Shown in pieces: positions 1,146 to 56,459 of a DNA stretch of 64,000 nt. Within the stretch, counting starts at the first letter, position 1. Each line of letters begins with the position of its first letter. The translations under genes were made by a program, and so were the position numbers. Source of the stretch: Escherichia phage vB_EcoM_phAPEC6. The stretch is from the sequence record MK817115.1; one strand, written 5' to 3'. The notes beneath the pieces were generated by a model. That model had not been told where the DNA came from and did no database searches. It worked only from the letters and a program-made list of their open reading frames with translations.

Positions 1146-1217
1146 ATTAATGCCAGTACTTGATACTGGCTTTTCTTTTTTGTATTAAATATAGTATAAT
1201 GAATAAAGGAGGGAATT
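1146..1217 (+). promoter_or_regulatory. Array cassette: terminator hairpin + promoter-like box + RBS
   Basis: Hairpin GCCAGTA-CTTGA-TACTGGC followed by a T-run; invariant GTATTAAATATAGTATAATGAATAA; AAGGAGGG 7-8 nt before ATG. Confidence 0.7.
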
Positions 1218-2360: not shown

Positions 2361-2433
2361 TGTAATATGCCAGTACTTGATGCTGGCTTTTCTTTTTTGT
2401 ATTAAATATAGTATAATGAATAAGGAGGGATTT
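2361..2433 (+). promoter_or_regulatory. Array cassette: terminator hairpin + promoter-like box + RBS
   Basis: Same hairpin, TATTAAATATAGTATAAT box and AAGGAGGG as other cassettes. Confidence 0.7.
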
Positions 2434-3543: not shown

Positions 3544-3613
3544 CATAATGCCAGTGCTTGATACTAGCATTCTTATTTGTATTAAATATAGTATAATGAA
3601 TAAGGAGGGAAAT
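3544..3613 (+). promoter_or_regulatory. Array cassette: terminator hairpin + promoter-like box + RBS
   Basis: GCCAGTGCTTGATACTAGC hairpin, TATTAAATATAGTATAAT, AAGGAGGG. Confidence 0.7.
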
Positions 3614-5992: not shown

Positions 5993-6062
5993 ATATATGC
6001 CAGTACTTGATACTGGCATTCTTATTTGTATTAAATATAGTATAATGAATAAGGAGGGAATT
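5993..6062 (+). promoter_or_regulatory. Array cassette: terminator hairpin + promoter-like box + RBS
   Basis: GCCAGTACTTGATACTGGC hairpin, TATTAAATATAGTATAAT, AAGGAGGG. Confidence 0.7.
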
Positions 6063-7253: not shown

Positions 7254-7324
7254 TAATTTCGCCAGTACAAAGTACTGGCTTTCTTATTTGTATTAAATAT
7301 AGTATAATGAATAAAGGAGGAAGT
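7254..7324 (+). promoter_or_regulatory. Array cassette: terminator hairpin + promoter-like box + RBS
   Basis: GCCAGTAC-AAA-GTACTGGC hairpin, TATTAAATATAGTATAAT, AAAGGAGG. Confidence 0.7.
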
Positions 7325-8059
7325 ATGTTACCTTTTGGAAGAATGGTAAAGTACGGGAATAAAATTGAATATAAGCCAGATGGTGAACAATTAATCACGA
7401 CAATAGGAACAACACAATTTACAGTTCCTGCTGGCGTTACCGAAATATCAGTATGTGTTATTTCGCCGGGTGGTCAACGTGGTGCTGGTGGCGGCTTATC
7501 GTGGCGTAATAATATTCCGGTTACTAGTGGTGAGTACTTAAGTGTTTCTCTTACACATCCCAACACTACTACAGCAGTTGAAAACGGTTTATATCGTGGA
7601 ACTGAAAAACTATGTGTTAGCTTCACTGGTGAATATAGGGTTGGTGGACTAGGTGGGAAAGCTGCTAACGCTATTAATGATGGTGGTGGTAATGGGGGCA
7701 ACGCTGGTGTAAGTGGTGGTGCAGTCATTGGTGGTGGTGCTGGTGGCTACACTGGTAAAGGTGGTAACGGAGATGCAATCACTGGTGAAAATGGTGCTGG
7801 CGGCGGCGGTGGTGGTGCATTCTATAATACCTCGTTCATTGGTACGGGTGGTGGTACTGGTATCATTGTTCAAGGTGCTAATGGTATTGGCGGTAGATAC
7901 GATGGTTCATATAATGGTGGTGCTGGTAGTGGTGGTGCTGGTAAGATGTATGGTGGTGGTGGTAGTATATGGGATAATTTTTCTTATACGGCTGCTGGTG
8001 GTGGTGCTGTGCGAATAATATGGGGACGTGGGAGATATTATCCTAACAATTCAGTCTAA
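7325..8059 (+). CDS. Array member 7: glycine-rich low-complexity protein carrying the same MLPFGRMVKYGN leader
   Basis: ATG at 7325 after RBS; leader identical to neighbours; body is Gly-rich (GGGAGGYTGKGGNGD, GAGGGGGGAF) with no RCC1 blades. Confidence 0.75.
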   Translation: MLPFGRMVKYGNKIEYKPDGEQLITTIGTTQFTVPAGVTEISVCVISPGGQRGAGGGLSWRNNIPVTSGEYLSVSLTHPNTTTAVENGLYRGTEKLCVSFTGEYRVGGLGGKAANAINDGGGNGGNAGVSGGAVIGGGAGGYTGKGGNGDAITGENGAGGGGGGAFYNTSFIGTGGGTGIIVQGANGIGGRYDGSYNGGAGSGGAGKMYGGGGSIWDNFSYTAAGGGAVRIIWGRGRYYPNNSV

Positions 8060-8131
8060 AATATAGGCCAGTACTTTGTACTGGCTTTCTTATTTGTATT
8101 AAATATAGTATAATGAATAAGGAGGGGAATT
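8060..8131 (+). promoter_or_regulatory. Array cassette: terminator hairpin + promoter-like box + RBS
   Basis: GCCAGTAC-TTT-GTACTGGC hairpin, TATTAAATATAGTATAAT, AAGGAGGG. Confidence 0.7.
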
Positions 8132-9283: not shown

Positions 9284-9355
9284 CATAAAGCCAGTACTCA
9301 AGTACTGGCATTTCTTTTTGTATTAAATATAGTATAATGAATAAAGGAGGAATTT
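9284..9355 (+). promoter_or_regulatory. Array cassette: terminator hairpin + promoter-like box + RBS
   Basis: GCCAGTACTCAAGTACTGGC hairpin, TATTAAATATAGTATAAT, AAAGGAGG. Confidence 0.7.
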
Positions 9356-18669: not shown

Positions 18670-18708
18670 AATAATTATAACAAAAAGGGCTGACCGAAGT
18701 CAACCCTT
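18670..18708 (-). promoter_or_regulatory. Composite terminator/early promoter element
   Basis: Minus strand: GGGTTGAC-UUCG-GTCAGCCC hairpin + T-run; the stem carries TTGACT, followed ~18 nt later by TTATAAT. Confidence 0.7.
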
Positions 18709-20849: not shown

Positions 20850-20889
20850 AAATAATTATAGCAAAAAGGGCTGACCGAAGTCAACCCTT
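20850..20889 (-). promoter_or_regulatory. Composite terminator/early promoter element
   Basis: GGGCTGACCGAAGTCAACCC hairpin plus ATAATTATAG -10 region, near-identical to the element at 18670. Confidence 0.7.
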
Positions 20890-21774: not shown

Positions 21775-21814
21775 AAATGATTATAGCAAAAAGGGCCGAC
21801 TGAAGTCAACCCTT
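21775..21814 (-). promoter_or_regulatory. Composite terminator/early promoter element
   Basis: GGGCCGACTGAAGTCAACCC hairpin variant + T-run; GATTATAGC -10 region. Confidence 0.65.
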
Positions 21815-23630: not shown

Positions 23631-23659
23631 ATTATACAGTACTGAATGTGTTTGTCAAC
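23631..23659 (-). promoter_or_regulatory. Sigma70-like early promoter with CAGTACTG in the spacer
   Basis: Minus strand: TTGACA-aacacattCAGTACTG-TATAAT. Confidence 0.65.
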
Positions 23660-27410: not shown

Positions 27411-27444
27411 TGTAATCCCTCTTCTTAATTCCTCTTTTGTATTT

Positions 27445-27474
27445 ACAAAAAAAGGCTGACCGAAGTCAACCTTT
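27445..27474 (-). promoter_or_regulatory. Composite terminator/early promoter element
   Basis: AAGGCTGACCGAAGTCAACCTT hairpin + T-run; TTGACT then GTAAATAC. Confidence 0.6.
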
Positions 27475-27481
27475 TGTTTTA

Positions 27482-28759
27482 TCATTTACCGTATTTGCTC
27501 ATGATGTCCTTTTCCCAAGGAGTTACATTTCCATTTTCGTAATCACGGAAAGAGTCATCAAGTGTAGTCAATGCATAATCATATGCCTCACCGGATTCAA
27601 CATCAATATCAACAGCACCATTCACTACATCAGTCCACGCTTTTTGTAGTTTACGAGCGTTGTTACCAACTTTATCTTTAATCCAACTAAGATTTCGGTT
27701 TATACTCTTCTTATCAGCACCAGCTTTTTCACCAACATCTGCAACCCATTGCATTAATTTCTGTAGTTCGTTATGGGATTTTTCAGTCATTTGGCGGTCT
27801 TGTGACAGTTCAGCTTCCATGTCATCAATTTCTTCGTCTGAATGAACATCGTTCTGTTCTACTGCACCTTCTTCATCATCACGCATCAGATAACCATCTC
27901 GTGTAACCTTCTCACCATGATCAGCTTCATACTTTTTCATAGTATTGAATGCAGCATCCATTGCAGTTACAAAACGACTCTTTTCACCTTGTACATAAGA
28001 TTTAAGTGCATCGTTAACTGCATCAGATACTAATTTAATCTTATCGTCTTTACCTTCCAGACGGTTTTCTAACTTAGCTAGTACATTCTTAACTTGTTGA
28101 GCATTAGCACGGTCTTCTTTACCAATACTATCAAATGTTTTAAGTACGCTTTCAAGACTTACTTCCTCTTGTGCAGGCACATCACCTTGTTGCGTACCTT
28201 CAAGTGCACGCATTATAGTACTGAATACTTCAGTTGGTTCAGTACTGGTATTTCCACTCATTGCATCAAGCACAGCTTGTGCTTTGACTTTTAATTCTTC
28301 TTTAGGTACAGATTGCAATTCTTTCACAATACCTTGGATAAGTTGTGGTTTATTAGCAAAAATCTTACCTAACTTATCAGACAGTTCTTTGACAGGGTTA
28401 ACCGCCTTTGGTGCTTCTTGTTTTGGTTCTTCTTTCGCAGGAGCAGACTTTTCTTTTTCTTCACGTTCCATATCAGCTAGACGTTGTTTTTGTGTAGCAT
28501 TAAGAAGTCCCAATGAATTAACATAACGTAGCTTTTCTAGCTCAGTCATGTTCTCAGTACTCTTAACTTCACCTGCTTCTGCGTTTGCTTTACCAGCTAG
28601 ACCAGTTCCTTGGTTACGTGACCCACGTGAACCTTGACCTGCTTGATAACTATTTGGACGGCGGTTGCGTTCACTCCATTTATCAGAGTGACCAGCCATG
28701 TTACCACCATTTTTATCAGTAAAATTACTTGGCATTTGATTTCTCTCCATAGATTTCAT
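27482..28759 (-). CDS. Lys/Glu-rich 425-aa protein, paralog of 29005..29388
   Basis: Shares YVNSLGLLNATQKQ and IVKELQSVPKEELKVKA blocks with the 127-aa neighbour; TATAAATA box ~16 nt upstream of ATG. Confidence 0.7.
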   Translation of the reverse strand: MKSMERNQMPSNFTDKNGGNMAGHSDKWSERNRRPNSYQAGQGSRGSRNQGTGLAGKANAEAGEVKSTENMTELEKLRYVNSLGLLNATQKQRLADMEREEKEKSAPAKEEPKQEAPKAVNPVKELSDKLGKIFANKPQLIQGIVKELQSVPKEELKVKAQAVLDAMSGNTSTEPTEVFSTIMRALEGTQQGDVPAQEEVSLESVLKTFDSIGKEDRANAQQVKNVLAKLENRLEGKDDKIKLVSDAVNDALKSYVQGEKSRFVTAMDAAFNTMKKYEADHGEKVTRDGYLMRDDEEGAVEQNDVHSDEEIDDMEAELSQDRQMTEKSHNELQKLMQWVADVGEKAGADKKSINRNLSWIKDKVGNNARKLQKAWTDVVNGAVDIDVESGEAYDYALTTLDDSFRDYENGNVTPWEKDIMSKYGK

Positions 28760-28777
28760 TTTTTCTCTATGTCTATA

Positions 28778-28816
28778 TTTATAGTATAAAGAAAAGGCTG
28801 ACCGAAGTCAACCTTA
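28778..28816 (-). promoter_or_regulatory. Composite terminator/promoter element (carries TATAAATA)
   Basis: GGCTGACCGAAGTCAACC hairpin; minus strand then reads TTTATACTATAAATATAG. Confidence 0.6.
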
Positions 28817-29004: not shown

Positions 29005-29388
29005 TTACTTCTTGAACTTATGTTTTTCACTTTCGATTGCATTCACGATTTCATCATGAATTTTACGAAGATTGTGAGTTTTCTTTAGAGATTCATGTAA
29101 TGCACGGAATGCAGAGTGTACAGTTGCTTTAAAGTGCTCTTTAGGAGTTACTTTAAGTTTCTCGATAATATCACGTACATAGATTGGGTGATCCTCAAAC
29201 ACACGATTAAGCTCATGACCTAGTGATTCTAGGCTAAATGCTTTTTCACGGGATGGACGATCATGTGCAAGACTTTGGTCTGGTTTTAGAAGACCTAGTG
29301 AATCTAGATACTTGTGCTTATGTGCATTGTCTAGACCAGAAATATCAACATCATGTGATGGATCTTTCTTATTCCATTTATCAACCAT
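29005..29388 (-). CDS. 127-aa protein, paralog of the 425-aa K/E-rich protein
   Basis: HKYLDSLGLLKPDQS and IIEKLKVTPKEHFKATV align with 27482..28759. Confidence 0.65.
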   Translation of the reverse strand: MVDKWNKKDPSHDVDISGLDNAHKHKYLDSLGLLKPDQSLAHDRPSREKAFSLESLGHELNRVFEDHPIYVRDIIEKLKVTPKEHFKATVHSAFRALHESLKKTHNLRKIHDEIVNAIESEKHKFKK

Positions 29389-29503
29389 TTTTATAACTCC
29401 TATAAGAGATAAATTTTACTATAATATTTATAGTTCCGTTGTCATTTATATCGAATGACATAAAACATTATATCATAATAAGAATGGTTGTCCCAAAGTT
29501 AAA

Positions 29504-32206: not shown

Positions 32207-32243
32207 AATTATAACAAAAAAGGCTGACCGAAGTCAACCTTTG
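32207..32243 (-). promoter_or_regulatory. Composite terminator/early promoter element
   Basis: AGGCTGACCGAAGTCAACCT hairpin + T-run; TTGACT then TTATAAT. Confidence 0.65.
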
Positions 32244-33935: not shown

Positions 33936-33992
33936 ATTTTTTACCTCAAGTTTAAGTGTTAAGTTTCAGACTACAGGAACCATTATACAGTA

Positions 33993-34235
33993 CTACGAAC
34001 GTTTGTCAACATTTGTTTCTTCAATAAGCATAAGATAACTTAACACGAAGAGTAATACCGAAATAATATCAATAACTGTAAAGCTCACTGGAATGATAAT
34101 AGACACCAGTACTAATGCCACGTTTAGCAAGAATACAGTAGTGAGATCTACCATCGTTCGTCTAGTGGCTAATGCCACTAGTGTAGGATAGAACATAAAC
34201 AATAGTGCAACAACAAAACTTAGTACTAGATACAT
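33993..34235 (-). CDS. Small membrane protein
   Basis: 80 aa hydrophobic. Confidence 0.5.
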   Translation of the reverse strand: MYLVLSFVVALLFMFYPTLVALATRRTMVDLTTVFLLNVALVLVSIIIPVSFTVIDIISVLLFVLSYLMLIEETNVDKRS

Positions 34236-38293: not shown

Positions 38294-38321
38294 ATTATAC
38301 AGTACTGATATCTTCTGTCAA
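38294..38321 (-). promoter_or_regulatory. Sigma70-like early promoter with CAGTACTG spacer
   Basis: Minus strand: TTGACA-gaagatatCAGTACTG-TATAAT; same downstream leader as the 37945 promoter. Confidence 0.6.
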
Positions 38322-38827: not shown

Positions 38828-39616
38828 TTAAATGTTAGTAGTATAGTACTTGATTTCGTGTTGAATTGCAAGTTCTATTTGTTTATTGAAAAGAATTCCA
38901 AACTCTTTGATTGATTCACAATCGAATTCAATAGAAAAAGTATACTCTGGTACACGTACATTGTCAATACCCAAATACTCTTTTATGTAAATTTTAATGA
39001 GTTCACATAGTGCAGTACTAAGACATTGAATTTCAAAATGTTTTGCACCTTTGTCAAAATACTTGAATGCATCAATATCACCTACAATAAAACTATTCTT
39101 TAATGTAGTGAATAGGTTCTCAGGAAACACGGTAATAGGTGACATTGATTTAAGAATGTATGTATCTTTGGCATTCTTAATGTACTCAATGAAGCAGTAG
39201 TTGACGTCAGGCTCGATTGAACGATCCGCGTTATGATACCAGTGTTTAAACTCACTGTATTCAGCAAACTTATGCTGGCGTAATGCGTTACAATCTTCAC
39301 ACAGTGCAGTCATGTTCTCTTTATCATTACCGCCCTGAAGACAGTCCAGTACATTATGGTCTAACGTCATGCGTACAAGGCGTTTCCCTTTAAGTACATA
39401 AGGTCTGAATTTATAACGTTCTTTAGTACTGTGCTTGTGTAAAGTGAATACTACATTTGATTCACCACAACAATCACATTTAAAGCCATCACGTGACATT
39501 ACATGAATGAGTTTGCGTGTGTTCGGTCCAAACTCAGATTTAGTAATGTTATCCACAATTTCTGATGGTTGGTAATATTTTGAATTCCGTTGAATCAGTT
39601 CATCGATAGTGCTCAT
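38828..39616 (-). CDS. HNH-family endonuclease (possible homing endonuclease)
   Basis: CDCCGES ... MTLDHNVLDCLQGGNDKENMTALCEDCN fits the HNH His-Asn-His/Cys signature. Confidence 0.6.
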   Translation of the reverse strand: MSTIDELIQRNSKYYQPSEIVDNITKSEFGPNTRKLIHVMSRDGFKCDCCGESNVVFTLHKHSTKERYKFRPYVLKGKRLVRMTLDHNVLDCLQGGNDKENMTALCEDCNALRQHKFAEYSEFKHWYHNADRSIEPDVNYCFIEYIKNAKDTYILKSMSPITVFPENLFTTLKNSFIVGDIDAFKYFDKGAKHFEIQCLSTALCELIKIYIKEYLGIDNVRVPEYTFSIEFDCESIKEFGILFNKQIELAIQHEIKYYTTNI

Positions 39617-39847: not shown

Positions 39848-40053
39848 TGAGTTTGTCCTACAATAAGCTTTGTGTTAGTATTACTATTGTAACACCACAT
39901 TTGTTCTTTATTAACTGTAATCCAAATATCTTTGTTTACTTGTTCGTATGTACTATCACGTACTGCTATGCATTGATTCATGGAATTCATTGGGGTTATT
40001 TGTATACCGGAATTAACAGAGAAAGCGACTACTAAAAAGATTACTGAATTCAT
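39844..40053 (-). CDS. Secreted small protein (signal peptide)
   Basis: MNSVIFLVVAFSVNSG N-terminus; TTGACA-N17-TAGAAT promoter at ~40095-40125 upstream. Confidence 0.5.
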   Translation of the reverse strand: MNSVIFLVVAFSVNSGIQITPMNSMNQCIAVRDSTYEQVNKDIWITVNKEQMWCYNSNTNTKLIVGQTQ

Positions 40054-40670
40054 TGGATATTCCTTAATGGTTAATCATCCATCTCTTCGAGATGTCTGTT
40101 CGCTTCTAATACTACGTATTCTACGCGAATGATTAATAACTGTCAAGGACTTTTAATATTGACGGGATTTGAGGAAGGGATTTTTCTTCCCCCCACAAGG
40201 AGGGAAATTTGACGCTGATGGTATCAGAGCTATTGCATTGAAGATTACTCATAACGAGTGCGAAAGCGGGTCATCCTGTTTCTCTCTACTTCAGTTTCAT
40301 ATGACGGTCTACACTTTTAAACATAGTGTATCTTCATTAAGTATCTATGCAATCAAATACTTAATGTGAGTACTCAAATTTTGGACGCAACTTTCCTGTA
40401 CAAAATTCGATAACTCTCCCTTAGATAATTCGTAAGGTGTTATCCTTATATGTCTATCAAGGAACCACCAGCTATCCTAACGTGGTTCTTTATACAGCCG
40501 CATTGCCGTGAGGGGTTCAAACTATGCCCACATCTAACGGGTTTCTTTTGCTGTTCGCACTGTCGGACTGCTCAACTGCCCTCTACGTTTTCGAGTGGAT
40601 CAGGTACATGAATATCATGCCAACAGAATTGTACAAGATAATTATATCACAAACTTTTACTTCATCCCAT

Positions 40671-40700
40671 AAAAAAAGGTTGGCATAAGCCAACCCTTGT
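40671..40700 (-). terminator. Intrinsic terminator after the sigma-factor gene
   Basis: Minus strand: GGGTTGGC-TTAT-GCCAACC followed by TTTTTTT. Confidence 0.65.
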
Positions 40701-40703
40701 TCT

Positions 40704-41669
40704 TTAGAAATCTTCGTATTCGTACCCTTTTGCAAGTACTAACTTCTTAAGCTTTTGCATAGCTTCACTGTACTTTCGGTGTATTGATGAACGGGATTTA
40801 ACATATTTTCCATTATCATCAACAAAACCATTATCAGCAATCTCACGAAGCGTTTCAGGTTCATATTCACCTAGACCATGAACACGCTGGATAATCTCAC
40901 GTTCTTTAGTACTCAATTCGTTAGTTAGTTCATTGATAGCATAACGTAAAGGTGCACGGATACTATCAACATTGAGGTTAAAATCAGAAGCAGGTGAATG
41001 AATAATGTCACCTAATGTACCATCTGTAACACCGTCTAATGGTGCATCCAGTGAAGTGTATTCGCTTTGAAATAATAAACAATTATTAACATGCTGAATC
41101 TCAATCCCAGTACCCTCTGAGATTATTTCAGGTGTTGGGCGAACACCATGTTTACGCATATATTCCTGGCAGAATCTTTTTACTTTGATCTTATGAACAC
41201 TCATATAACGTGGGAAGTGTACCATATAGTTAGCGTCAGAACTTTCGTTATAAACTGTCATGTAAATACTAGAAGAAGCATAGGTAATGAACTTCACATT
41301 CTTATTAAGATCAAAGGTTTTTAGTGCTCTCATGAACCCCTCAACACCATATGAAATCTTATCTTCAAATGGGATATAACAAGTACATTTACTTGCTACA
41401 TCAATAATAAGTCCATAATTGTAACGAACTAACAGTTCAGTGTTTTTCTTTACATTGATACCAGCTTGAATATCACGAATTAGATCTTCATTGGAAACAT
41501 TTGGTGGTCGCTTAAGTGTAATATTATATTTGAAACTGCTTTGTACTTTACCTTCATTTTCATCTTTATCTTCAACGAAATCTAAGGCTTCTAGTGTGTT
41601 GACTTCTTCATTAGCAAAACATTCATCCAGAACTTCTTCGGCAATTGTATTTAAATCAAGCTTTTTCAC
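40704..41669 (-). CDS. Sigma-70 family RNA polymerase sigma factor
   Basis: Region-2-like LLVRYNYGLIIDVASK ... GVEGFMRALKTFDLNKNVKFITYASSSIY and a region-4-like C-terminus (EREIIQRVHGL ... TLREIADNG). Confidence 0.6.
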   Translation of the reverse strand: MKKLDLNTIAEEVLDECFANEEVNTLEALDFVEDKDENEGKVQSSFKYNITLKRPPNVSNEDLIRDIQAGINVKKNTELLVRYNYGLIIDVASKCTCYIPFEDKISYGVEGFMRALKTFDLNKNVKFITYASSSIYMTVYNESSDANYMVHFPRYMSVHKIKVKRFCQEYMRKHGVRPTPEIISEGTGIEIQHVNNCLLFQSEYTSLDAPLDGVTDGTLGDIIHSPASDFNLNVDSIRAPLRYAINELTNELSTKEREIIQRVHGLGEYEPETLREIADNGFVDDNGKYVKSRSSIHRKYSEAMQKLKKLVLAKGYEYEDF

Positions 41670-41690
41670 TTACATCTCCTAATGACGAAA

Positions 41691-42188
41691 TCAAAATCGA
41701 TATACATTAATATTATCATCTGTGAAGCAATCATGGTTATGCACATCCATGAAAGTACTAAACACTTTATCATATAAAGTTGTATGTTCTTCATGAATAG
41801 CAGCATCTAGCATGTATTCTCCACCACTTCCCATAAAGAAAGTGTAGTCTTCATGTAGATATTCAAGTTTTTTAATAAACTTTCCTTTAGTTAAAATCAT
41901 ATGAATAACATAATCTTTAGAAAGAAGCACACAATGGCAACTTAACTTTCTGTCAGGTATAACTGGTACTTTATTAATTAACCAATCCAGTACTTTATCA
42001 ATTTCACTTACTGACCCACTAGCACTGAATAAACGGTCATGTACATATAAAGTTTTTTGATTAACAACTCCATATTGATATTTTGGTCTTAGTGGGAAAA
42101 AACCAAATAAGTTTCGTGGTATAGTTGACGTAACTCTAGAATCGGTAATCAATAAATTTAATCGTTTATCAATATAAACAGTTGTCAT
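41691..42188 (-). CDS. Hypothetical protein
   Basis: 165-aa ORF. Confidence 0.55.
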   Translation of the reverse strand: MTTVYIDKRLNLLITDSRVTSTIPRNLFGFFPLRPKYQYGVVNQKTLYVHDRLFSASGSVSEIDKVLDWLINKVPVIPDRKLSCHCVLLSKDYVIHMILTKGKFIKKLEYLHEDYTFFMGSGGEYMLDAAIHEEHTTLYDKVFSTFMDVHNHDCFTDDNINVYRF

Positions 42189-42189
42189 A

Positions 42190-42609
42190 TTAAACCTTAT
42201 CTAAGAATTTATCGTATATATAAAATTCTTTATCGGTGAATACATTAATTCTAGTATCGAATCTTTGCATCGTGTTCATATACAATGAACTTTTTAAATA
42301 AAAATACAAAGCAACAAATTCTGATATATGCATATTCTTTTTATTGTTACATAAATTCTTTAGCATTTTGATGCTATCAAATTCTTCTTTATCAAATCTG
42401 TACTGGTAAAAATTGTATCTATTGGATCGGCACTCATAGATACGAAGTGCCATTATATCAATACATTCTTTAGATTTACAGTACTTATTCAATACGTCAT
42501 AATCACCCGTACATAATGCTACAAAGATTTTATGTGCAAGCGTAGCTTTGCCCTCAATCGTATAATAGCCAAAAAATTTAATGATTAAGTACTGAATGAA
42601 TGTAATCAT
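42190..42609 (-). CDS. Hypothetical protein
   Basis: 139-aa ORF. Confidence 0.55.
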   Translation of the reverse strand: MITFIQYLIIKFFGYYTIEGKATLAHKIFVALCTGDYDVLNKYCKSKECIDIMALRIYECRSNRYNFYQYRFDKEEFDSIKMLKNLCNNKKNMHISEFVALYFYLKSSLYMNTMQRFDTRINVFTDKEFYIYDKFLDKV

Positions 42610-42614
42610 TTGAT

Positions 42615-42875
42615 TTAGAATTTCTCCGAAATTACTAGAGTGTCATCATAATCTTCTGCAATCTCATGAAGAACTTTTAAGTTACTTTCACCAGAAACGC
42701 TTTGTACTTCGTTCAAAAGATAGTTTAGATCAACTTTAGTTACTTTTTCTGAATCAAATACACAGAAAGTCAATTCAGCGTTTGGACAGATCTTCTTCAG
42801 ATTATCAGCAACAACTTGTTTGAAGTTGAAAGATGGGGAAGCAACCAGGTTAACTGCAACGAGAATAGATTTCAT
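42615..42875 (-). CDS. Hypothetical small protein
   Basis: 86-aa ORF. Confidence 0.5.
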   Translation of the reverse strand: MKSILVAVNLVASPSFNFKQVVADNLKKICPNAELTFCVFDSEKVTKVDLNYLLNEVQSVSGESNLKVLHEIAEDYDDTLVISEKF

Positions 42876-42949
42876 AATGTTTTCCTTTTTAGCTGATAAT
42901 TAAATTAGGAGCACATTGTACTCCATATTATTTGTTATGTAAAATACTT

Positions 42950-43201
42950 TTAGATACCAAGTGCAGTAGATAACTCTTTACGTTTGTTATATGAATCAGA
43001 TTCAATCTTACTTTTCTTGTTGAAAAGGGATTCAATATCCTTATAGATTGCTTCGATAGATTTAGTTACTACCCATTCTGATTCTTGAAGCATACCTTGG
43101 AGTCGTGCGTACTCAACTTTGATAGTACTGCGAAGTTCTTCACAAACTTCTTCATTCTTAATTAGTGCAGCACTAAGTTCTTTGACCTTATCGATGTTCA
43201 T
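42950..43201 (-). CDS. Hypothetical small protein
   Basis: 83-aa ORF. Confidence 0.5.
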   Translation of the reverse strand: MNIDKVKELSAALIKNEEVCEELRSTIKVEYARLQGMLQESEWVVTKSIEAIYKDIESLFNKKSKIESDSYNKRKELSTALGI

Positions 43202-43260
43202 AAGTTCCTTACTCTAATTTGTTTTTAACAAAATAATTATATATAACATACTAAATTATG

Positions 43261-43686
43261 TCAAGTATTTTTAGTACCTTCTTCTGCCATTTTTGTGATA
43301 TACCAATTAAGTACTGATTTGTGTACCATAAAAAATGTGAATGCAAATATAGCAATAGCTGCTGATGTAACACTATTAGATAATGACCCAAGTTGGATGT
43401 TAGTACCTAAAATAACAATAAATGGATACAACACAATCAATCTACTGTAAGGTTCGTCTCCAGTATCACGGAGAAATCCAAGCCTTTCATGATCAGTATC
43501 CATAGTGACAATTGGACAGAACATAAGTGCAGACATAAGAGCAATACCAATTTGTGCTACATTGGAAATTGTAAACCACAAAGGATTTAAACCATATGAA
43601 ATATTATTTTCTGTACAGTAGTAACCAAACGAATTGAATGCACAAACTAAAAATACAAAAATACAAATCTTATTATAGCCTCTCAT
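43261..43686 (-). CDS. Membrane protein
   Basis: 141 aa with several hydrophobic segments. Confidence 0.55.
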   Translation of the reverse strand: MRGYNKICIFVFLVCAFNSFGYYCTENNISYGLNPLWFTISNVAQIGIALMSALMFCPIVTMDTDHERLGFLRDTGDEPYSRLIVLYPFIVILGTNIQLGSLSNSVTSAAIAIFAFTFFMVHKSVLNWYITKMAEEGTKNT

Positions 43687-44105
43687 TTGTTTAGCTCCGT
43701 TAATTTTCGTTTAACTTCTAGATCATGAAACTCATCGGCATATGAGTTTTGAACAGTTCTGATGTATTCCAACATAACAAACATAGTTCCACATACCCAT
43801 AGATATGTATAGTAATCAAATACAAATGCATATAACATACACGGTACTAAAATGAAAGTGTAAACAAAACTATATCGTGTAGTTCCAAATACTTTCAGAT
43901 ATAACAAACGTCGATAATCACGGGCAAATGTATTGATGCACACTGAAAATGTAATTAATGTATACCATGAAATACCCTGAATTAAACCTGAAACATTTAC
44001 AAGTTTATGTTCATCGGAAAACCCCAGTGCATTTAGCACTGGAGCCATAACCCAACCAATAATACTAATAAGAAAAAGATATTTTGCATTACTTAGTGTG
44101 AACAT
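43683..44105 (-). CDS. Membrane protein
   Basis: 140 aa hydrophobic; 4-nt overlap with downstream gene. Confidence 0.55.
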   Translation of the reverse strand: MFTLSNAKYLFLISIIGWVMAPVLNALGFSDEHKLVNVSGLIQGISWYTLITFSVCINTFARDYRRLLYLKVFGTTRYSFVYTFILVPCMLYAFVFDYYTYLWVCGTMFVMLEYIRTVQNSYADEFHDLEVKRKLTELNK

Positions 44106-44565: not shown

Positions 44566-44606
44566 TTTCCATCCCCCTTGGGTTACTTGGTGTGTTAATT
44601 ATAATA

Positions 44607-45083
44607 CTAAGAATCTTTGTTGTCAAACTTTTCCCTCAAATATTTTTCTATTAATCTAATTTGTGTTGGTGGTAAGATAAAGTAATCGTACATAGATTTA
44701 CTACCATGTATCGAACAACCTACACTAATACTATAATCATATGGATATAAGTATATTGGGTCTTGTATATCAGGTATGAAAACTATTCTTGGTATATTAC
44801 CATTTCCTATTCTTACTTGGACGTTATCATTATTATTAAGATAATTTCTTATACAGTACTCAATTATACCATTTACTTTAGAATCATAACCATAATTTTT
44901 ATATTCAGGAAAAATGAAATAGCGTTCATGGTATAGATATGAGCATAGTAACGCTGGGAAAAAATTCCAAAATCCTTCATGTTTTGCAATTGTTTGTGCA
45001 TATTTAAAATGATTAGCATTACTAAAAATATTATACAGCACAAAATACACAAATGGACTTACCAACAACACTATTGTTAACAT
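44607..45083 (-). CDS. Hypothetical protein with N-terminal hydrophobic segment
   Basis: 158-aa ORF. Confidence 0.55.
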   Translation of the reverse strand: MLTIVLLVSPFVYFVLYNIFSNANHFKYAQTIAKHEGFWNFFPALLCSYLYHERYFIFPEYKNYGYDSKVNGIIEYCIRNYLNNNDNVQVRIGNGNIPRIVFIPDIQDPIYLYPYDYSISVGCSIHGSKSMYDYFILPPTQIRLIEKYLREKFDNKDS

Positions 45084-46349: not shown

Positions 46350-46465
46350 AAAAACACCTCATTATTCATTCACTACATGATAACACCAAATCATACACCA
46401 GTCAAGCTCATTTTTTGGATATGCATAATAAATACGTTATAATAATTATACCAATGGAGGGATAA

Positions 46466-47620
46466 ATGTCAAGGTCAATTGCTGCGGCTGGACACTATAA
46501 GTTTGGTGAATGTGGTTATGTTGTTGATGGTGCAATCCTCAACGATGGAACTAGACTAAAAAATATTAGAATCTATCGCCAAAGAAGCCATAGATTATAT
46601 GATTTAATTGATCCAAGAACTAATATAATATATCGTAAAGTACAAATAACAACTAAAGATAATAAAGGTTATCTATTAAATTACAATAAAACTAATGACC
46701 AACTATTAAGTGAAATTAATAAAAATTGTTTCTTTGTTCGTGGATATTCTGAAGAGCCACAAGAAACTGATACTGGATTTGTATATAAATTTATGCTACA
46801 TAAAACAATTTTAGGTAGTTCACAAACCTTGTATCATATGTATACACCTGAATGTGGTATTATAGATCGTGATATAGATAATATTCTCATTTCACCAGTA
46901 TTTGTTGGTAATGACTCAATTAGTGGTAAATTATTCAACACTGGTTCAGAAATTGATACTAACGGTATGGTAATAACAATCGTATTACCAGACGGGACAG
47001 AATACTTTACTACCCAATTTGTTAATGATGCATTTACAATTCCAGTTGATGTTATCACACAATCAGGGAAAGGTACTGCTACGCTCACTTCTCCATATTA
47101 TAACACTAAAGTGGTGGAATTTGATGTTCTTGAAAGTGGTGAGGATATTGATTTTGTTACATCAGTTCTTCTATCCCAATTTGAACCTGTTTCGGAAGGT
47201 GTATTTTCTGCGGTTGTTCCATTTGATGTTCATGATCGTGGACAGTACTTAGCACTTCAAGCATACAGTGGTGACTTATATCAAGTTGGTGTAGATCTTT
47301 CTGTAGACGCAGAAGGTAATATTACTGTGTATCAAACTGATAATTTACCTGTTTCTTTGAGTATAATCGGAAAAACACTGCATACTACTCCTTTCCATAA
47401 AGAATATACTTTAAGTGAGTGGGTTCTCGGTGAAGACTCTATGTACTCTATCTCAGTTCCAGTAACTGAACATGGTAAAGCACTACCACAAGTTCAATTA
47501 TATTCTTCAGACAATCATGTAGTTCATAGTGAAATACAAGTGGATGAAGATGATAATGTAATTCTTAAAGTAGTAGAACCGCTTGACTGCTCAGTCGTAA
47601 TAGTTGGTTACAACGCATAA
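46466..47620 (+). CDS. Hypothetical 384-aa protein; only plus-strand gene inside the minus block
   Basis: GGAGGGA RBS before ATG; upstream TAATAAATA / TTATAAT boxes resemble the array cassette promoter; bidirectional hairpin downstream. Confidence 0.7.
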   Translation: MSRSIAAAGHYKFGECGYVVDGAILNDGTRLKNIRIYRQRSHRLYDLIDPRTNIIYRKVQITTKDNKGYLLNYNKTNDQLLSEINKNCFFVRGYSEEPQETDTGFVYKFMLHKTILGSSQTLYHMYTPECGIIDRDIDNILISPVFVGNDSISGKLFNTGSEIDTNGMVITIVLPDGTEYFTTQFVNDAFTIPVDVITQSGKGTATLTSPYYNTKVVEFDVLESGEDIDFVTSVLLSQFEPVSEGVFSAVVPFDVHDRGQYLALQAYSGDLYQVGVDLSVDAEGNITVYQTDNLPVSLSIIGKTLHTTPFHKEYTLSEWVLGEDSMYSISVPVTEHGKALPQVQLYSSDNHVVHSEIQVDEDDNVILKVVEPLDCSVVIVGYNA

Positions 47621-55270: not shown

Positions 55271-55295
55271 ATTATATCAGTACTGAACTATTTAG

Positions 55296-55299
<4 letters not shown>
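55271..55299 (-). promoter_or_regulatory. Sigma70-like early promoter with CAGTACTG spacer
   Basis: Minus strand: TTGACT-aaatagttCAGTACTGa-TATAAT; 25-nt core repeated at 54816, 55277 and 55687. Confidence 0.6.
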
Positions 55300-55709
<410 letters not shown>

Positions 55710-56310: not shown

Positions 56311-56426
<116 letters not shown>

Positions 56427-56459
56427 ATGTTATGTCCCATTATATAATGAATTAATGAT

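Follow-up and report, generated by a model that had tools for sequence, protein, structure and literature searches.

The DNA considered here (the window, 64,000 nucleotides (nt) of sequence record MK817115.1) belongs to Escherichia phage vB_EcoM_phAPEC6, an Asteriusvirus jumbo coliphage of the 121Q/PBECO4-type, and the gene under study encodes an RpoD-like sigma factor of 321 amino acids (aa) with a GTG start. The gene lies within a long minus-strand block of small genes, ends at an intrinsic terminator and is followed by a promoter-like element and, apparently, by a structured non-coding RNA. The first part of the window carries, on the plus strand, a tandem array of cassettes for RCC1-like beta-propeller paralogs (phrog_4219, Pfam RCC1 repeats), with the same box in front of each. 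A preliminary description of this DNA had put forward the sigma factor as a candidate driver of these boxes. The evidence presented below points rather to a gp55-like late sigma for the array, and to another promoter class, TGGGACA-N13/14-TGnTATAAT, as the candidate target of the RpoD-like sigma. The features concerned are located in Table 1. From 40000 to 44000, the window was 99.6% identical to Escherichia phage vB_Eco_slurp01, and its identity to 121Q, PBECO4, G17 and other Asteriusvirus jumbo phages was 98.8–99.6%.

Table 1. Location of the genes, promoters and other elements discussed. Positions are those of the window except where EC22.5-2 is named.
Feature	Coordinates	Strand	Remarks
RpoD-like phage sigma factor	40704–41669	-	GTG start, 321 aa
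Host-type early promoter TTGACA-17-TATAAT	43236–43264	-	perfect (12/12), nearest upstream of the sigma gene
Host-type early promoter	44598–44626	-	perfect (12/12), upstream of the sigma gene block
Intrinsic terminator	40675–40698	-	right after the sigma stop codon; AAGGGTTGGCTTATGCCAACCTTT then T-run; annotated terminator in G17
Middle-class variant TGGGATG-N13-TGATATAAT	40641–40669	-	right downstream of the sigma terminator, before the non-coding RNA
Apparent structured non-coding RNA	40143–40641	-	conserved, about 450–500 nt, adjoining the sigma gene
Putative middle promoter TGGGACA-N13-TGATATAAT	29467–29495	-	tandem with the late box at 29425, before the 14.83-kDa virion gene
Putative middle promoter TGGGACA-N13-TGATATAAT	56411–56439	-	directly upstream of the tRNA cluster (tRNA-Ser/Arg)
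Array box copy 1, TATTAAATATAGTATAAT	1183–1200	+	terminator hairpin before; AGGAGG and ATG 17 nt after
Array box copy 2	2400–2417	+	
Array box copy 3	3580–3597	+	
Array box copy 4	6029–6046	+	
Array box copy 5	7291–7308	+	
Array box copy 6	8097–8114	+	
Array box copy 7	9321–9338	+	
Array box copy 8	10605–10622	+	
Array box copy 9, GATTAAATATAGTATAAT	12985–13002	+	1 mismatch
TAAATA past the last full-length cassette	14228–14233	+	before a further MLPF... coding start; TATAAT lost (TAAATAtaaTAACGA)
Late-type box ATAAATAcgtTATAAT	46428–46443	+	TAAATA core ends 31 nt before the isolated gene 46466–47620
Late-type box TATAAATATAG	28773–28783	-	single occurrence; before gene 27482–28735; contains full TATAAATA; no TATAAT
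Late-type box TATAAATA	29425–29432	-	before gene 29005–29388; no TATAAT
TAAATA, candidate late promoter	27440–27445	-	right after a terminator; 29 nt before ATG (EC22.5-2 ortholog)
Virion protein gene	27482–28735	-	46.39 kDa, gp035c; phrog_20398, virion structural protein
Virion protein gene	29005–29388	-	14.83 kDa, gp037c
Virion protein gene	46466–47620	+	42.88 kDa, gp077; phrog_10468, virion structural protein
Terminator-promoter composite	18674–18703, 20855–20884, 21780–21809, 32208–32237	-	GGGTTGACTTCGGTCAGCCC-TTTTTG(C/T)TATAAT
Early promoters with CAGTACTG	38294–38321, 33982–34009, 23631–23658, 55681–55708, 55271–55299	-	
gp55-like late sigma	EC22.5-2 217492–218331		279 aa, outside the window
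Non-coding RNA paralogs	EC22.5-2 89940–90484, 143345–143934, 223164–223676		

The preliminary description had recognized regions 2 and 4 of the sigma-70 family in this open reading frame (ORF), and the profile searches bear out the assignment. Pfam Sigma70_r3 (PF04539; E 2e-9, 37.8 bits, cut-off 25.3) and NCBIfam TIGR02937, the sigma-70 superfamily (44.7 bits, cut-off 42.9), matched above threshold, while the profiles for the two regions first recognized came just below theirs: Sigma70_r2 (PF04542) with E 7e-5 and 23.0 bits for a cut-off of 24, and Sigma70_r4 (PF04545) with E 3e-5 and 23.8 bits for a cut-off of 24.1, covering only residues 251–279. The protein belongs to phrog_351, 'RNA polymerase sigma factor' (E 2.6e-60), and the sequences of solved structures that matched it were RpoD, SigA, SigB and RpoS chains (E 5e-17 to 1e-10). 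Its residues 1–49 are acidic and predicted to be disordered, and they precede sigma2 (about 60–146), sigma3 (about 154–200) and sigma4 (about 234–313). These three domains were modelled confidently by AlphaFold2 (mean predicted local distance difference test score, pLDDT, 70.5), and the best Foldseek matches of the model in the PDB were sigmaS and sigmaA chains (E 1.8e-11, probability 1.00); the template modelling (TM) scores against them were low (0.35–0.40) because the relative arrangement of the domains was not predicted. The ORF almost certainly encodes a functional sigma factor, one that we infer would bind the host core polymerase and direct promoter-specific initiation. On the other hand, RpoD_Cterm (E 6e-25, 88 bits) and PRK05658 (64 bits) scored far under their equivalog cut-offs of 354 and 555, respectively, and no match to region 1.1 or 1.2 was obtained in the ORF with Pfam PF00140 and PF03979; therefore, the protein is not an RpoD equivalog. 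No paralogue of it was found in the phage genome.

The sigma gene is already known, so that its recognition in the window was correct but not new: the public annotation 'RNA polymerase sigma factor' exists for 121Q gene 167, G17_00146, PBECO4 and slurp01 rpoD. The sigma is present in about 79 phage records. The Rak2-like ('group 2') sigmas of 121Q (gene 167), PBECO4, G17 (G17_00146), RaK2 (ORF244), CBB (CBB_513) and GAP32 are the same gene as the ORF of the window, which is 99.4–99.7% identical to the Asteriusvirus entries, with nothing to set the copy of the window apart, and whose identity with the orthologues of RaK2, Munch, CBB and XaC1 is 31–46%. In length, in the order of its domains and in its location in the early region, the ORF agrees with what is reported for sigmas of the Rak2 group (PMC5259590, PMC7824862, PMC11895373). 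Among bacterial proteins, the best matches in both sequence and fold were group 1/2 sigmas (E. coli sigma70 and sigmaS, Mycobacterium SigA and SigB), with which regions 2.1–2.3, 3 and 4 align at an identity of about 23%.

Residues were compared by means of a HMMER alignment to E. coli sigma70 (region 2: residues 373–458) and of alignments with clade members and bacterial sigmas. The sigma70 residues N383, D403, F419, K426, F427, T429, Y430 and A431 are kept in the phage protein, and they include what we take to be core-binding residues and the pocket that captures the flipped -11 adenine. The DNA-reading residues have diverged. Regions 2.3–2.4 contain the changes W433S, W434S, R436Y, Q437M, T440Y and R441N, the position of W433/W434 being T, S or A in every Rak2-group orthologue, and region 3.0 contains H455Y and E458V at residues that read the extended -10. 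In the recognition helix of region 4.2, SRSSIHRKY stands in the place of sigma70 TRERIRQIE, with R584 kept and the changes E585S and R588H. Both the alignment and the AlphaFold model show that the turn of the helix-turn-helix in region 4.2 contains 6–8 additional residues, predicted to form a beta-hairpin; the second helix-turn-helix fold of region 4 looks to be present in the predicted structure. The altered DNA-reading residues are conserved inside the phage clade.

Concerning the expression of the sigma gene, its block is headed by two perfect host-type promoters (Table 1), between which and the gene no TAAATA or TGGGACA-type promoter was found. Judging from these promoters, the gene is probably an early gene transcribed by host sigma70 holoenzyme. 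The authors of the CBB study took the same view of early expression for the orthologous region (PMC5259590).

The preliminary description had suggested that a second promoter class might stand beside the host-type early one, and classes beyond it do exist, namely a TGGGACA type, here called middle, and a TAAATA late type. Genome-wide motif statistics were obtained with phage EC22.5-2 (OR845138.1; 351,992 bp), an unannotated relative, 97–99% identical, on crude gene calls (596 genes). The middle class came out of listing all intergenic TATAAT and then searching for the pattern: about 24 sites per genome conform to TGGGACA-N13/14-(g)TG(a/c)TATAAT, and all but two, likely due to chance, are on the main coding strand. 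Such sites precede a gp55-like gene (directly, at position 217406 of EC22.5-2), the tRNA cluster and four non-coding RNA genes, and in Salmonella phage 7t3 (annotated 50-kb stretch) one of them stands before the DNA polymerase gene. From the position of the putative middle promoter at 56411–56439, the tRNA cluster would share a regulon with the gp55-like gene. A 'divergent RpoD-like promoter', TGAAACG-N13-TGnTATAAT, has been described in CBB, with the gp55-like gene among those that carry it (PMC5259590, text and Table S6). This CBB/GAP32 element has the same 29-bp geometry and the same position before the gp55-like gene as the Asteriusvirus middle class; the CBB sites are mostly before DNA-synthesis genes. 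Where CBB has TGAAACG, Asteriusvirus and Munch/7t3 have TGGGACA and the RaK2 type has YTGAACR. The CBB heptamer TGAAACG was rejected as a motif of the window, where it gave 6 matches for 6.7 expected. The TGGGACA version of Asteriusvirus was not described in the literature searched, and neither promoters nor sigma factors are analysed in the RaK2 genome paper.

When the heptamer was set beside the region 4.2 helix of the RpoD-like sigma, the two changed together. The 121Q-type helix KSRSSIHRKY occurs with TGGGACA (about 24 sites); TARSSLHRKY of EcMJ/TH47 with TGAGACA (1 site); SSRTSLHRCY of Munch/7t3 with TGGGACA (4 sites and 1 variant, TGGGACG, in 7t3, and 1 site in Munch); TVRGTLHYKF of the RaK2-type with YTGAACR (about 5 sites in W12-3, in which further extended -10 sites carry host-like TTGACA); TSKATLSRRY of CBB with TGAAACG (the sites of Table S6 and 1 more); the same helix of Yersinia Yen9 with TGAAACA (1 site); and NSKPTLSRRY of XaC1 with TGAAACA (1 site). 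For these last three lineages, the pairing may be summed up as SK(A/P)TLSRRY with TGAAAC(G/A/C). The Munch sigma is closer overall to that of CBB (45%) than to that of the window (38%), yet it has the R...H helix and TGGGACA, as in Asteriusvirus. At the level of sequence, co-variation of the -35-like heptamer with the helix over these seven lineages is suggestive. To our knowledge, region 4.2 of host sigma70 is identical among these enterobacterial hosts; a -35-like element that drifts while the host region stays constant indicates a phage-encoded reader, for which the RpoD-like sigma is the obvious candidate. That this sigma reads the middle class may be given even chances.

With respect to the array, the invariance of its box, pointed out in the preliminary description, is real: TATTAAATATAGTATAAT occurs on the plus strand between 1183 and 13002 in eight exact copies and one with a single mismatch, for an expectation of 0.07. 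The core of the box is TAAATA-N3-TATAAT. The box does precede every ATG, as described, at a distance of 16–17 nt instead of about 20. It was also rightly set apart from TTGACA/TATAAT promoters in that it lacks a -35 element, the corresponding position being occupied by the T-run of a terminator (TTTCTT), but its last six bases are a perfect TATAAT. Each cassette runs from the upstream stop codon through a terminator hairpin (GCCAGTAC-loop-GTACTGGC, in which the copies differ by compensatory changes), the T-run, the box and GAATAA(A)GGAGG to the ATG. The invariant block begins about 4 nt upstream of the box, with TTTG, and extends to the end of GAATAA; most of the first 30 or so coding bases are invariant too. 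The nine copies are tandem duplicates and not independent events, and for this reason the invariance of the box says less than first appears. In the more diverged cassettes of EC22.5-2, TAAATA and TATAAT stay constant, and what varies is the flanking sequence and the spacer of 3 nt (ttgtATTAAATAtag, tttttgTAAATAcat, ttggggTAAATAtga). The cassettes at 7291–8059, 10605–11449 and 14228–14685 share promoter, leader and an MLPF(G/A)RM N-terminus but differ in their bodies; the product of 7325–8059 is phrog_4474 and not RCC1, and the ORF 10640–11449 is a truncated copy of 269 aa (30.06 kDa), yet it is found in virions as gp007.

The TAAATA of the array box proved to be part of a genome-wide class. 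The hexamer is avoided in EC22.5-2 (223 on both strands, compared with 430–785 for comparable AT-rich hexamers), and so is TATAAATA, with 2 occurrences in the window for 14.4 expected and 14 in the EC22.5-2 genome for about 59 expected. Of the 223 TAAATA, 77 lie in sense orientation 15–65 nt upstream of predicted starts, an 8.2-fold enrichment, and ATAAATA is the most enriched upstream 7-mer apart from the Shine-Dalgarno (30 of its 52 copies, 22-fold). The 48 non-array sites tend to have A before the hexamer and to be T-rich upstream; their distance to the ATG is most often 29–38 nt, and no -35-like signal was found among them. The presence of TATAAT downstream was rejected as a general feature of the class, since only 2–3 of these 48 have it. 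TAAATA sites stand before very large genes (3323, 1841 and 1153 aa, for example), and in 7t3 they are located 23–51 nt before the genes for the major head precursor, scaffold and maturation protease, and also before baseplate wedge, baseplate hub, lysozyme and tail-fibre genes. In CBB and GAP32, ATAAATA has been described ahead of structural genes by the CBB authors, who compared it with the late promoter of T4 (PMC5259590, Table S7). As for the boxes similar to that of the array which had been proposed upstream of the genes at 46466 and 28759, TATAAATATAG is present once, on the minus strand at 28773–28783, and the sequence upstream of 46466, ATAATAAATACGTTATAAT, is similar to the array box, not identical.

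The products of these genes were identified by comparing computed ORF masses with the mass-spectrometry-verified virion proteins of phAPEC6 (PMC7247149, Table 1). Every gene of the window to which a TAAATA box was mapped corresponded by mass, to two decimals, to a virion protein: besides the three genes outside the array (Table 1), the array ORFs of 41.23, 41.39, 40.25, 41.36, 30.06, 39.30 and 41.39 kDa match gp551, gp003, gp005, gp006, gp007, gp009 and gp010, respectively. The comparison with T4, whose late promoter TATAAATA is used with gp55, gp33 and the gp45 clamp, is close: TAAATA equals its 3′ six bases (6/8), and the array boxes, like T4 late promoters, lack a -35, stand before virion genes and occur in a phage that encodes a gp55 homologue. 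The differences are that the consensus is shorter, (A)TAAATA, and that in the array an invariant TATAAT follows at 3 nt. We consider it likely that the array boxes are late-class promoters of the gp55 type.

The gp55-like protein itself was found in EC22.5-2. Two PHROG families matched it, phrog_12791 (E 2.7e-154; 'sigma factor for late transcription') and phrog_234 (E 8.4e-18; 'late sigma transcription factor'). Its identity with the product of 121Q gene 591 is 100%, and a tblastn search with it matched cyanophage gp55. As phmmer with T4 gp55 against all ORFs of this relative reached at best E 0.054, the candidate was confirmed with PHROGs and tblastn. With its 279 aa, the protein carries an N-terminal extension, unlike T4 gp55. 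Between Asteriusvirus and GAP32 or Kaldavass, the gp55-like protein keeps 74–75% identity and the RpoD-like sigma only 32–36%; so, the conserved sigma matches the conserved late motif and the drifting sigma matches the drifting middle motif. At the gp55-like locus of the relatives, a middle and a late promoter are placed back to back on opposite strands.

These elements may be ordered in a cascade. Host sigma70 holoenzyme would first make the RpoD-like sigma early; this sigma would then take the host core polymerase to the TGGGACA-type middle promoters, the gp55-like gene being among the targets; and the gp55-like sigma would then read the (A)TAAATA late promoters, those of the array included. 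Each RCC1-like cassette would thus be a monocistronic late unit composed of terminator, TAAATA-N3-TATAAT, Shine-Dalgarno and the gene of a virion-associated protein. The sigma cascade of Bacillus phage SPO1 employs gp28 for middle genes and gp33/34 for late genes, and the logic proposed here would be analogous, from an early phage sigma to middle promoters and from these to a late sigma. It differs from SPO1 in that the late factor is gp55-like (T4 type) and the middle -10 is indistinguishable from that of the host. As drawn from motifs and gene content, the complete cascade from host sigma70 through the RpoD-like sigma (middle) to the gp55-like sigma (late, with the array) seems to us equally apt to be right or wrong. 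A broader version, in which a three-tier cascade is general to Rak2-like phages, the region 4.2 helix and the heptamer co-evolve by lineage, and the middle regulon includes four previously undescribed structured RNAs, is advanced more tentatively.

Several points weigh against the cascade. It is the 97–99% identical relative, and not the window, that supplied the gp55-like gene and most of the motif statistics. The co-variation amounts to about two evolutionary events, with several lineages represented by one promoter each. No transcription data for any Rak2-like coliphage were found in the literature searched. The TATAAT located 3 nt after TAAATA, invariant in the array and so rare among the other late sites, is unexplained by the late-class model. 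According to the CBB authors there are no gp33 or gp45 homologues (PMC5259590); contrary to them, Iyer et al. place gp33 orthologues in group 2 phages. Finally, all lineages have the same middle -10, TGnTATAAT, which is the canonical extended -10 of sigma70, while the residues with which sigma70 reads T-12 and TG are missing from the phage sigma, and the positions concerned vary by lineage (IYM in some, IRQ in others). Host sigma70 suits such a -10 better than does a sigma devoid of Q437, T440, H455 and E458. A constant -10 together with non-canonical sigma residues fits a division in which host sigma70 reads the -10 and a phage factor reads the heptamer.

This last point leads to an alternative in which host sigma70 is appropriated in the manner of T4 AsiA/MotA: sigma70 would recognize TGnTATAAT, itself constant as the -10 is, a candidate DNA-binding activator of the phage would recognize TGGGACA, and the phage sigma, non-canonical and lineage-variable in regions 2.4 and 3.0, would have another target or mainly compete with sigma70 for core polymerase. 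T4 middle promoters combine a sigma70 -10 with a factor box near -30, a layout that the class described here shares. A transcriptional regulator lies two genes from the sigma, according to the CBB authors (PMC5259590). However, the heptamer takes exactly the place of the -35 hexamer, with TATAAT at a distance of 16–17 bp, and shares the bases GAC with TTGACA; R584 is kept in the lineages that use TGGGACA; the heptamer follows the region 4.2 helix and not the overall sigma phylogeny, as the case of Munch illustrates; and no other enriched upstream motif class was found for the RpoD-like sigma. We regard the appropriation of sigma70 as the main alternative for the middle class, possible but unlikely.

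As for the array, the idea that the RpoD-like sigma reads its boxes, taking TATAAT for the -10 and TATTAAATATAG for an extension upstream of it, and reads those of the genes at 46466 and 28759 as well, is disfavoured, not refuted, and we hold it to be improbable. It would account for an invariant box without host -35 and for the TATAAT that the late-class model leaves aside; TAAATA-N3-TATAAT was found again at 46428 and at 162887 of EC22.5-2, and with the sigma residues for -12 and the extended -10 being non-canonical, an unusual upstream extension of the -10 is conceivable. Against this, at least 45 other TAAATA sites have the same position and virion-gene cargo with no TATAAT, TATAAT is absent from the boxes at 28773–28783 and 29425–29432, and the coding start at 14228 retains TAAATA when TATAAT is gone. 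TAAATA constitutes a genome-wide, T4-late-like class that extends to the head, baseplate and tail-fibre genes of 7t3, and the genes behind the boxes match virion proteins by mass. A dedicated gp55-like sigma, separate from the RpoD-like one and conserved like TAAATA, exists for such a motif, and region 4 is retained complete in the RpoD-like sigma, with no conserved -35-like element in the array promoters that could be its partner. It is likewise improbable that host sigma70 holoenzyme reads the array through TATAAT as a -10-only promoter helped by an AT-rich, UP element-like upstream sequence, TAAATA being incidental, for although every full-length cassette has a perfect, invariant TATAAT, both a -35 (TTTCTT, 2/6) and a TG extension (TAGTATAAT) are lacking, a start 7 nt after TATAAT would leave a leader of only about 10 nt beginning at the Shine-Dalgarno, TAAATA is strongly avoided elsewhere in the genome yet invariant in the array, and the array products are virion proteins.

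The stretch that adjoins the sigma gene downstream belongs to a set of four paralogs in each genome, and every one of the four has a middle-class promoter of its own in front of it. It contains no minus-strand ORF, and Rfam gave no match for it at the gathering threshold or with E up to 1. Its sequence is about 70% identical at the nucleotide level in CBB, Erwinia, Yersinia, Munch and XaC1 phages, in which the adjacent sigma protein is only 31–38% identical, and the family ranges over Rak2-like phages of Escherichia, Salmonella, Pectobacterium, Erwinia, Yersinia and Xanthomonas. An RNAalifold consensus of nine sequences had 63 pairs, 28 of them with compensatory double changes. Judging from these alignments, the stretch is apparently a structured non-coding RNA. 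It is un-annotated in the records of distant relatives that were checked, and a few close relatives have short hypothetical-protein ORF calls there. A relation to the RNA-seq-verified ncRNA002 and ncRNA004 of PA5oct was rejected, as nhmmer with the nine-sequence profile gave no match.

Other observations concern the surroundings of the sigma gene and further promoter motifs. The gene directly upstream (41691–42188, minus strand) encodes a protein of 165 aa, phrog_24804, with a weak match to the HslV peptidase family (E 1.3e-6), and an HNH endonuclease gene (phrog_35175; 38828–39616, minus strand) lies about 1 kb downstream. A terminator-promoter composite, GGGTTGACTTCGGTCAGCCC-TTTTTG(C/T)TATAAT, is repeated in the window, with the -35 TTGACT within the terminator stem and the T-run as spacer to a perfect TATAAT. 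The palindrome CAGTACTG abuts the -10 (...CAGTACTGTATAAT) in many early promoters of the window and at many sites of EC22.5-2, and it could be either the operator of a phage regulator or a quirk of composition; AGTACT/GTAC recurs in UP-like regions and in the terminator stems of the array. The stretch between 31 and 50 kb of EC22.5-2 contains a family of early promoters, aaaaAGTACTTGCAA-N-GCGTATAATGTTTTACAT, about 17 in number and almost identical, and every one of them precedes a small gene (47–155 aa).

The main use of these results is a correction, by which the array boxes are to be taken as probable late-type promoters for virion-associated RCC1-like proteins, and the TGGGACA-N13/14-TGnTATAAT class becomes the candidate target, a more specific one, of the diverged RpoD-like sigma. 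If the co-variation is true, nature would provide in the Rak2-like phages a series of pairs, each of a sigma region 4 and the -35 element matched to it, acting on the same host core enzyme, which would help the study of how promoter specificity evolves and the design of orthogonal promoters.

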